In this document: positions 61,000-62,217 of the stretch, piece after piece
How positions within the stretch are numbered: the stretch's first letter is position 1
Layout of the letters: each line of letters starts with the position of its first letter
From: a virus
Taxonomy: Duplodnaviria; Caudoviricetes
DNA: 64,000 bases
IMG/VR virus record: IMGVR_UViG_3300014208_000023
Location: 364,321-428,320 of that record
Strand: one strand, 5' to 3'
Program-made: the position numbers and the translations under genes
Notes under the pieces: model-generated
The model's database searches: none
What the model saw: the letters and a program-made list of their open reading frames with translations, nothing else
Told to the model about the DNA's origin: nothing

Positions 61000-62217
61000 T
61001 CAGCCCTTTATGCAAACAACCTGCTTCAATGTATGAACTACATTAACCAAGTCTTCTTGCGCCTTCATTACTGAATCGATACTTTTATAGCAATCGGGAG
61101 TCTCATCAATAACATCAATGTCTTTGCGACATTCAACGCCAGCGGTTGCCTTGGCATGATCCTCAAGAGTGAATTGCTTCTTGGCTTGGGTGCGAGACAT
61201 TAGCCGTCCTGCACCGTGAGAGCAGCTATTGAAAGACTCGGCCTCTCCCTTACCTTCAACAATGAAGCTCTTAGCTCCCATTGATCCCGGAATGATTCCA
61301 AGTGTTCCCTTGGAAGCATTCACTGCGCCCTTACGAGCAAGCCAAACATCCTTGCCGAAGTGATGCTCATTAGCAACGTAATTGTGGTGGCAGTTGATTG
61401 CTTCCTTGGTTAGAGAAAACTCTGGAAGACCAGACTTACGTAGAGCGTTTATAGTTGCATTCATCATTAGCTGGCGATTAACCAGGGCATAATTCTGCGC
61501 CCACTGAACGGCATCAACATATTCCTGAAAATGATCTGCACCTTCTGTAAGGTAAGCGAGGTCACGATCTGGAAGGTTGATGTTGTTACGCTCCATGTCT
61601 TCGCGAGCCTTGGCAATGAAGGTAGAACCGATTGAGTTACCTACTCCACGAGAACCGGAGTGAAGCATAATCCAAACGCAATCAGATTCATCAAGGCAGA
61701 CTTCAATGAAATGATTACCAGTTCCAAGGGTGCCAAGCTGGTTAGCTGCTCGTGGATGGTTAATGCGAGGATACTTCTCTGCCATTCGAGTAAGGCCAGG
61801 AAGCATCTCTGCCCATACCTTACCAACCTCATCGGGAACATTGTGCCACTGACCACGATCGCCAGACTTACCTTCGTTAGTCCGACCATGAGGAACGGCC
61901 TTCTCAATCATAGAGCGAAGCTCCTTGAGGCTATCTGGAAGCTGCTCTGCTTTGAGAGAGGTTCGGATAGCCATCATGCCACATCCGATATCTACACCGA
62001 CTGCTGCCGGAATGATCGCTCCGACTGTAGGAATAACCGAACCAACCGTCGATCCAAGGCCCCCATGAACGTCAGGCATGATAGCAAGATGGCTATGAAT
62101 GAAGGGAAGCGTAGCAAGCTTCTCTAGCTGCTCCTTAGCTCCATCTTCAAACTGGACTCCCTTGGTCCAAGACTTAATGGGCGCAGAGCCTTCTTTTTCG
62201 ATTAGTTCGTAATTCAT
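61000..62217 (-). CDS. rtcB: RtcB RNA ligase (2',3'-cyclic phosphate/5'-OH)
   Basis: MPDVH, VGVDIGCG, LGTLGTGNHFIE, LHSGSRG, HHNY, RKGA, IPGSMG, SHGAGR, DETPDCYK. Confidence 0.95.
   Translation of the reverse strand: MNYELIEKEGSAPIKSWTKGVQFEDGAKEQLEKLATLPFIHSHLAIMPDVHGGLGSTVGSVIPTVGAIIPAAVGVDIGCGMMAIRTSLKAEQLPDSLKELRSMIEKAVPHGRTNEGKSGDRGQWHNVPDEVGKVWAEMLPGLTRMAEKYPRINHPRAANQLGTLGTGNHFIEVCLDESDCVWIMLHSGSRGVGNSIGSTFIAKAREDMERNNINLPDRDLAYLTEGADHFQEYVDAVQWAQNYALVNRQLMMNATINALRKSGLPEFSLTKEAINCHHNYVANEHHFGKDVWLARKGAVNASKGTLGIIPGSMGAKSFIVEGKGEAESFNSCSHGAGRLMSRTQAKKQFTLEDHAKATAGVECRKDIDVIDETPDCYKSIDSVMKAQEDLVNVVHTLKQVVCIKG

Follow-up and report, generated by a model that had tools for sequence, protein, structure and literature searches.

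A stand-alone RtcB-type RNA ligase in an uncultured megaphage and its likely role in the repair of translation RNAs

The rtcB gene considered here lies in a stretch of DNA of 64,000 nucleotides (hereafter the window) that forms the last 64 kb (positions 364321–428320) of a 428,320-bp IMG/VR virus record. The record belongs to an uncultured phage, carries terminal repeats at its ends and was rated complete. We found that rtcB encodes a stand-alone RNA ligase, which most likely repairs tRNA or other RNAs of translation against RNases that form cyclic-phosphate ends; this function is proposed with moderate confidence. The ligase is intact and conserved in its close relatives, no partner repair enzyme was found with it in the genome, and in phages generally rtcB is linked to tRNA genes. 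For the present phage rtcB itself is ordinary, and what should be retained are the statistics of its adjacency to tRNA genes elsewhere and the uncharacterised partner gene that precedes it.

The phage RtcB matched the Pfam profile PF01139 over its full length (profile positions 1–426; 2e-129, 433 bits against a cut-off of 27) and PHROG 1075 ("tRNA splicing ligase") with 2.9e-150 and 502 bits. In an alignment with the solved RtcB proteins of P. horikoshii and Thermus, the catalytic residues D76, C79, N168, H169, H186, H278 and H334 were all present, their counterparts in the P. horikoshii enzyme being D95, C98, N202, H203, H234, H329 and H404. The Asp-x-x-Cys and Asn-His motifs, two more histidines and the S-H-G-A-G-R nucleotidyl-histidine motif with its GMP-accepting His are thus kept. 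The protein has no intein, as intein-containing models were matched by their extein parts only, and its C-terminus reads ...LKQVVCIKG. Judged by its sequence, the rtcB product is an intact, complete RNA ligase with every catalytic residue, and it is predicted to carry out the GTP/Mn-dependent joining of 3'-phosphate or 2',3'-cyclic-phosphate ends to 5'-OH ends. RtcB enzymes are known to seal such ends and have been implicated in tRNA repair (PMC7790460); the same end requirement is given elsewhere (PMC7824862). An earlier note on this DNA had recognised an RtcB at this place and ascribed this chemistry to it, and both statements hold.

The protein has at least five close full-length relatives (97, 87, 86, 86 and 85% identity), in all of which the catalytic residues are invariant; three of them are encoded on contigs of 424–431 kb, two such contigs measuring 430,963 and 423,953 bp. 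Beyond these relatives, identity does not exceed 67%. Altogether, 698 phage records contain an RtcB homologue. In a tree of 123 rows the megaphage clade was monophyletic (support 100), its sister group (support 86) included proteins from contigs of 218–430 kb, and the next branch outward (support 83) held RtcB of the cultured phages pf16 and phiCbK, while named bacterial RtcB sequences were placed in the other half. This tree, which is moderately supported and arbitrarily rooted, points to RtcB having resided for long in large phages rather than having been captured recently. Scans of viral, metagenome and genome contigs with RtcB or the orphan family described below yielded no member of the RtcB clade, the closest protein being 66% identical. 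As a separate observation, two contigs that may be of phage or bacterial origin, one of 371,678 bp (P0013/P0205) and one of 429,735 bp (P0071/P0235), appear from identical contig sizes to carry both the nearest outgroup RtcB and a glutamyl-tRNA synthetase (GluRS) 50–51% identical to that of the phage.

The surroundings of rtcB were analysed in 80 IMG/VR contigs (L088–L167, some of which may include host DNA) with rtcB at 52–63% identity, 77 of which remained after removal of three duplicates. At least one tRNA gene was located within 10 kb of rtcB in 36 of the 80 contigs, and tRNA genes reached a density of 0.40 per kb at distances of up to 300 bp, compared with 0.05–0.08 per kb at 0.3–4 kb. 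A tRNA gene lay no more than 300 bp from rtcB at 12 of the 77 loci, compared with 2.7 ± 1.5 expected by random placement, and a count of 12 was not attained in any of 2000 trials. These tRNA genes flank rtcB at 9–221 bp, mostly on the same strand, in contigs of 38–63% G+C (e.g., L092, L098, L103, L106, L131 and L141). The commonest neighbour is tRNA-Pro(UGG), sometimes as part of a Pro-Gln(-Arg) or Pro-Leu mini-array directly upstream. The adjacency supports a tRNA-related role of phage RtcB in general. Such a role is not a new idea: Pope et al. (2011) noted that among mycobacteriophages tRNA and RtcB genes occur together only in subcluster K1 and put forward the speculation that RtcB gives protection from host tRNA cleavage (PMC3203893), and Iyer et al. 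(2021) stated that jumbo phages complement their tRNAs with RtcB and ATP-grasp ligases, by which cleaved tRNAs are religated (PMC7824862). The reading of phage RtcB as directed against tRNases was published in 2011 and again in 2021; the adjacency, at about 4–5 times chance, puts the older speculation on a quantitative footing.

In the mechanism that we favour, the phage would express active, stand-alone RtcB, together with the clade-specific 222-aa partner, from a long accessory block on the minus strand. During infection, metal-independent RNases, such as HEPN-type anticodon nucleases and toxin RNases, would nick RNAs and leave 2',3'-cyclic-phosphate and 5'-OH ends. RtcB would then mend RNAs that serve translation, chiefly host and phage tRNAs broken in the anticodon loop. 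It would act alongside the phage tRNAs, GluRS and the lysidine synthetase TilS without depending on them; most simply, these would provide decoding capacity for the A/U-rich codons of the phage. If RtcB does act in counter-defence, its end chemistry implies that the enemy is a metal-independent RNase, whether of the HEPN type (PrrC, RloC), colicin-like or MazF. Were this true, phage RtcB would represent a counter-defence that works by repair and differs in its chemistry from the classic T4 Pnkp/Rnl1 route, and its chemistry would predict that the weapon of the host consists of metal-independent RNases making cyclic-phosphate ends.

The tRNA genes of the phage are compatible with this mechanism and with plain codon supply alike. 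The genome has a G+C content of 39.7%, and 365 of its 433 long open reading frames are on the minus strand. All 14 decoding tRNAs predicted by ARAGORN are on the minus strand as well, and together occupy an arc of roughly 92 kb crossing the ends of the record (370–418 kb and 4–28 kb). The rtcB gene, at 425–426 kb, falls within this arc, which is weak evidence, being the position of one gene within 21% of the genome. Phage genes have a GC3 of 0.33 and prefer A-ending codons (AGA, 41% of Arg; GGA, 41% of Gly; AAA, 62%; GAA, 63%; CAA, 61%; AUA, 35% of Ile), and it is these favoured codons that the phage tRNAs decode, AUA being read through TilS and tRNA-CAU. The tRNA set also overlaps known targets of anticodon nucleases (Lys, Glu, Gln, Tyr, Asn and Arg). 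Codon supply explains the set equally well without any host tRNase. Assignment of a host from the nearest named bacterial RtcB (64–67% identity) or GluRS (50–52%), which are from Myxococcota and Acidobacteriota, was rejected as these are too distant; the 40% G+C of the phage argues against a host of 65–70% G+C.

Several points weigh against RtcB as a repair enzyme for attacked tRNAs. Both the substrate, tRNA, and the enemy, a host RNase, are inferred. The recently described tRNA-cutting defences PARIS, Septu, PtuAB and OLD use metal-dependent nucleases, the products of which carry 3'-OH and 5'-phosphate ends and are not substrates of RtcB; cuts by Toprim/HNH tRNases likewise leave ends that RtcB cannot repair. 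No Rnl2- or PNK-type enzyme that could deal with such cuts was found in the genome, the search for Rnl1 being uninformative. Plain codon supply accounts for the tRNAs of the phage, which therefore offer no independent evidence of tRNAs under attack. In the present genome the nearest tRNA genes are not adjacent to rtcB but lie 6–7 kb away on both sides. Finally, our literature search found no experiment on any phage RtcB, and deletion of the host rtcB was without effect on one Pseudomonas phage (PMC4933390). The tRNA repair suggested in the earlier note thus gains from the location of rtcB in the tRNA arc and from the adjacency in other contigs, and loses from a tRNA set that requires no host tRNase.

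Comparison with known systems places the phage enzyme closest to bacterial and phage RtcB of the ordinary kind. It resembles RtcB of the rtcBA locus of Escherichia coli and Salmonella (rsr-yrlBA-rtcBA) in size class (about 405 aa), catalytic residues, C-terminal motif and predicted chemistry. Unlike in that operon, the phage gene is not accompanied by RtcA, Ro60/TROVE or Y RNAs and follows a clade-specific orphan gene in an accessory block. Among cultured phages, RtcB proteins of Pseudomonas phage pf16 (gp31), Ralstonia phage RP12 (ORF213), Caulobacter phage phiCbK (gp240) and subcluster K1 mycobacteriophages are 60–61% identical to it over the full length. In pf16, RP12 and phiCbK the gene is likewise set among small genes of unknown function but has another upstream partner. 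The proposed purpose, resealing of anticodon loops cut by an abortive-infection nuclease, is shared with the repair of PrrC-cut tRNA-Lys by Pnkp and Rnl1 of phage T4; however, the T4 enzymes heal and then seal through 3'-OH and 5'-phosphate ends, whereas ligation by RtcB is direct. In RP12, genes for an Rnl-type ligase and for NAD salvage stand beside rtcB, whereas in the present genome neither an Rnl2-type ligase nor, with regard to T4, a PNK-type gene was detected (for Rnl1 the search was uninformative).

These statements rest on searches of the 428-kb genome for partner repair, splicing and ribosome-rescue genes. RtcA (PF01137) and Ro60/TROVE (PF05731) had no match at E≤0.1, RtcR not having been searched for, and there was none to archease (PF01951), tRNA-intron endonuclease (PF01974), Rnl2-type ligase (PF09414) or the RF-1/PrfH domain (PF00472); the controls were positive in all these cases. 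Rnl1 (PF09511) had no match in the genome either, but its control matched nowhere, which renders that search uninformative. An AAA_33 search for a PNK-type kinase, with positive controls, gave only P-loop fragments under the cut-off. With the reservation on Rnl1, RtcB is the only RNA ligase or RNA-repair enzyme found in the genome.

The gene directly upstream of rtcB encodes a 222-aa orphan protein (Table 1). The two genes are probably translationally coupled, as their overlap suggests, and no convincing promoter or terminator was seen between them. Five full-length homologues of the orphan were found, all from uncultured sequences, and one of them probably shares a 2,121-bp contig with the 97%-identical RtcB, judging from equal contig sizes. 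The homologues have invariant His, Asp and Cys residues. The orphan matched nothing in Pfam, PHROG or NCBIfam, tblastn against cultured phages gave no homologue, and the protein is unrelated to those encoded before rtcB in pf16, RP12 and phiCbK. Its AF2 model (pLDDT 74) had no fold match in Foldseek/PDB or VIA-align wide searches; a PH-like fold was discarded as not meaningful, the best Z being 4.4 over residues 1–66 only. Profile searches delineated an N-terminal small domain of about 60 aa (residues 1–61) that lies outside the Pfam and PHROG families and has a motif of roughly H-x-N-x-D-D-G-x-Y ... G-T-x-E-E-L ... F-C. Elsewhere this domain occurs as stand-alone proteins of about 70 aa and at the C-terminus of metagenome proteins of about 190 aa (27 representatives, E≤0.001). 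The orphan is clade-specific and is worth retaining as an uncharacterised partner gene.

Table 1. Coordinates of the genes and RNAs of the window that are discussed in the text.
Feature	Positions	Strand	Remarks
gltX (GluRS), N-terminal 408 aa	3..1226	minus	Runs off the window start; full protein 483 aa (P0151)
Array of seven mimics	5564..7647	minus	tRNA-shaped RNAs; anticodon loop replaced by a 6-bp stem and UUCG tetraloop
Individual mimics of the array	5564-5634, 5639-5709, 5768-5838, 6499-6569, 6796-6866, 7180-7249, 7578-7647	minus	
tRNA-Gln(UUG)	6110-6183	minus	Genuine tRNA amid the mimic array
Eighth UUCG-sealed mimic	22500..22570	minus	Covariance model; next to tRNA-Gly(UCC)
tRNA-Gly(UCC)	22756-22828	minus	Adjoins the eighth mimic
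SpoU-family 2'-O-methyltransferase	25188..25814	minus	PF00588, 2.8e-20, 73 bits
CDA-fold deaminase, 114 aa	32039..32383	minus	PF00383, 31.9 bits
Second-type tRNA-like RNA	32392..32478	minus	Acceptor and T arm, CCA end, no anticodon loop; ARAGORN at lowered threshold
tRNA-Asn(GUU)	40026-40112	minus	ARAGORN, Rfam
tRNA-Leu(CAA)	40144-40227	minus	ARAGORN, Rfam
tRNA-Tyr(GUA), aberrant	41718-41801	minus	ARAGORN only
tRNA-Leu(UAG)	43585-43670	minus	ARAGORN, Rfam
tRNA-Tyr(GUA), more regular copy	43683-43762	minus	ARAGORN, Rfam
tRNA-Ile(GAU)	45668-45743	minus	ARAGORN, Rfam; the cluster from Asn to Ile(GAU) spans 40026..45743
Minimal TilS, lysidine synthetase N-domain only, 217 aa	52421..53074	minus	PF01171, 1.8e-32
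tRNA(CAU)	54031-54107	minus	ARAGORN, Rfam; nearest decoding tRNA to rtcB in the window, 6.9 kb downstream
rtcB, 405 aa	61000..62217	minus	Stand-alone E. coli-type RNA 3'-phosphate/5'-OH ligase; PF01139
222-aa orphan gene	62214..62882	minus	Stop overlaps the rtcB start (ATGA)

The earlier note had combined RtcB with other proteins of the window into one tRNA toolkit; three of these, GluRS, TilS and SpoU, are real, whereas the target of SpoU is not assignable and the deaminase looks to be of another kind. GluRS matched PF00749 at 9.7e-85 and TIGR00464 with 388 bits against a cut-off of 290, by which it is a bona fide bacterial-type gltX. TilS has the PP-loop N-domain (TIGR02432, 121 bits against the equivalog-domain cut-off of 93.6) and is devoid of the C-terminal tRNA-binding domains; its substrate is likely the tRNA(CAU) encoded about 1 kb upstream, as tRNA-Ile2. 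The SpoU protein scored under every equivalog cut-off (RlmB, TrmH and TrmL) and therefore cannot be assigned to an rRNA or a tRNA target; its PDB matches (TrmH, RlmB and AviRb) were all weak. The sole PDB match of the deaminase was deoxycytidylate deaminase 4p9c (E=2e-4), and it had no NCBIfam match and no specific similarity to tRNA deaminases of the TadA or CDAT8 type, only the generic PF00383. It is probably dCMP deaminase-like and not to be counted as a tRNA enzyme.

As to the RNAs, ARAGORN called nine decoding tRNAs in the window, the number given in the earlier note, and Rfam confirmed eight of them. The ninth, the aberrant tRNA-Tyr, was missed by the Rfam tRNA model with the threshold relaxed to E≤10. 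Its anticodon stem contains an A.A mismatch, position 37 is C, a 3-nt spacer precedes the D arm, and CCA is encoded. The tRNA-Asn(GUU) likewise has an encoded CCA; its D stem is 3 bp long, and its variable arm is long, as in class II tRNAs. In bacteria a long variable arm is normally limited to Leu, Ser and Tyr tRNAs, which makes the charging identity of this tRNA uncertain. Nine non-decoding tRNA-like RNAs were verified, compared with eleven in the earlier note, namely eight UUCG-sealed mimics and the second-type RNA. The array of seven was detected by Rfam tRNA alignments, nhmmer and a covariance model (R1, 91–99 bits), and with filters off the model of the sealed mimics found exactly eight copies in the window. 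Compensatory changes in the stems (alignment A3) show that the mimics are under structural selection. The second-type RNA folds with z = −2.4. Two other candidates, at 55738–55813 and 41371–41453, were rejected because their folding is unconvincing. When the window was compared with Rfam, tRNA was the only family to reach the gathering score, and no Y RNAs were seen.

The idea that all these components, that is RtcB, the tRNAs, TilS, SpoU, the deaminase and the mimics, form one coordinated counter to a host anticodon nuclease, with the mimics as uncleavable decoys, is in our estimate very unlikely indeed. All the parts are encoded on one strand within the tRNA-bearing arc, and the mimics are structurally selected. 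In cyanobacteria, moreover, long tRNA arrays are co-regulated with rtcB, and Santamaria-Gomez et al. (2021) suggested that their surplus, non-canonical tRNAs may be sponges for toxin RNases (PMC8421152). The association of surplus tRNA genes with rtcB is indeed similar, but the cyanobacterial arrays are cellular, stress-induced and not viral, and their tRNAs keep the anticodon loops. The parts in the phage are 7–55 kb from one another and interleaved with unrelated genes (those for a ClpB-like ATPase, a subtilase, an M4 protease, PLD, SET, GNAT, FGE-sulfatase-like and thioesterase proteins, two GIY-YIG endonucleases and many orphans); in addition, the deaminase is probably of the dCMP type and SpoU has no assignable target. 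RtcB occurs in hundreds of phage records, as noted above, and seven further huge phages that carry rtcB (225–427 kb, complete or nearly so) have neither GluRS nor sealed mimics, the matches to the mimic model in them being ordinary tRNAs with 7-nt anticodon loops; RtcB therefore does not depend on mimics or GluRS. Anticodon nucleases recognise the anticodon loop. The mimics lack this element, which weakens the decoy idea, and nothing in the sequence supports it. What had been seen as one toolkit is a set of genes that lie loosely in the same region and can each be explained separately, not an operon or a unit, and the sealed-anticodon mimics, which are the unusual items of the window, do not need RtcB.

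It is likewise extremely unlikely that the enzyme takes part in tRNA splicing, as RtcB does in archaea and metazoa, or in rRNA repair, as in the bacterial pair of PrfH and RtcB that mends cut 16S rRNA (PMC9304027). Splicing is unlikely because neither a splicing endonuclease nor a credible intron-bearing tRNA in the window was found, and archease is missing from the genome as well. The only intron call of ARAGORN (-i) in the window is spurious, with mismatched stems and an "intron" that contains the M4 protease gene; a second call was made elsewhere in the genome, at 28793–29011. A ribosome-repair pair is unlikely because there is no PrfH, and RtcB scored 143 bits with TIGR03073, the model of the PrfH-linked subfamily, against a cut-off of 271.8. 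The phage might also use RtcB in its own RNA metabolism, repairing collateral nicks from phage-induced RNA degradation or ligating or circularising a structured phage non-coding RNA, with the 222-aa partner as a specificity or end-processing factor. We regard this as unlikely. The coupling of rtcB to an orphan that is conserved and keeps certain His, Asp and Cys residues unchanged, and the lack of any other RNA-repair gene found alongside, would suit it; however, the search of the phage identified no nuclease generating cyclic phosphates, no fold or family could be recognised for the partner, which does not stand beside rtcB in pf16, RP12 or phiCbK, and the closeness of rtcB to tRNA genes in viral contigs at large points to tRNA. 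A bolder reading is very unlikely. In it, RtcB and the orphan would constitute a new kind of RNA-sealing module, made of two proteins and found in megaphages; the orphan would select substrates or process ends, replacing in function the archease or RtcA that the phage lacks, and the module could act on the unusual tRNA-shaped RNAs of the phage as well as on cut tRNAs.

Some further features of the window were noted. Two genes for GIY-YIG/NUMOD3 homing endonucleases (25831–26430 and 26747–27364, both on the plus strand) are located directly beside the SpoU gene, on the opposite strand. A gene for a thermolysin-type M4 protease is followed by a small open reading frame with a weak match to emfourin, an M4 inhibitor (32632–33991, minus strand). 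The same accessory block also encodes a subtilase (19561–21285) and a ClpB-like AAA+ protein (10256–12652).

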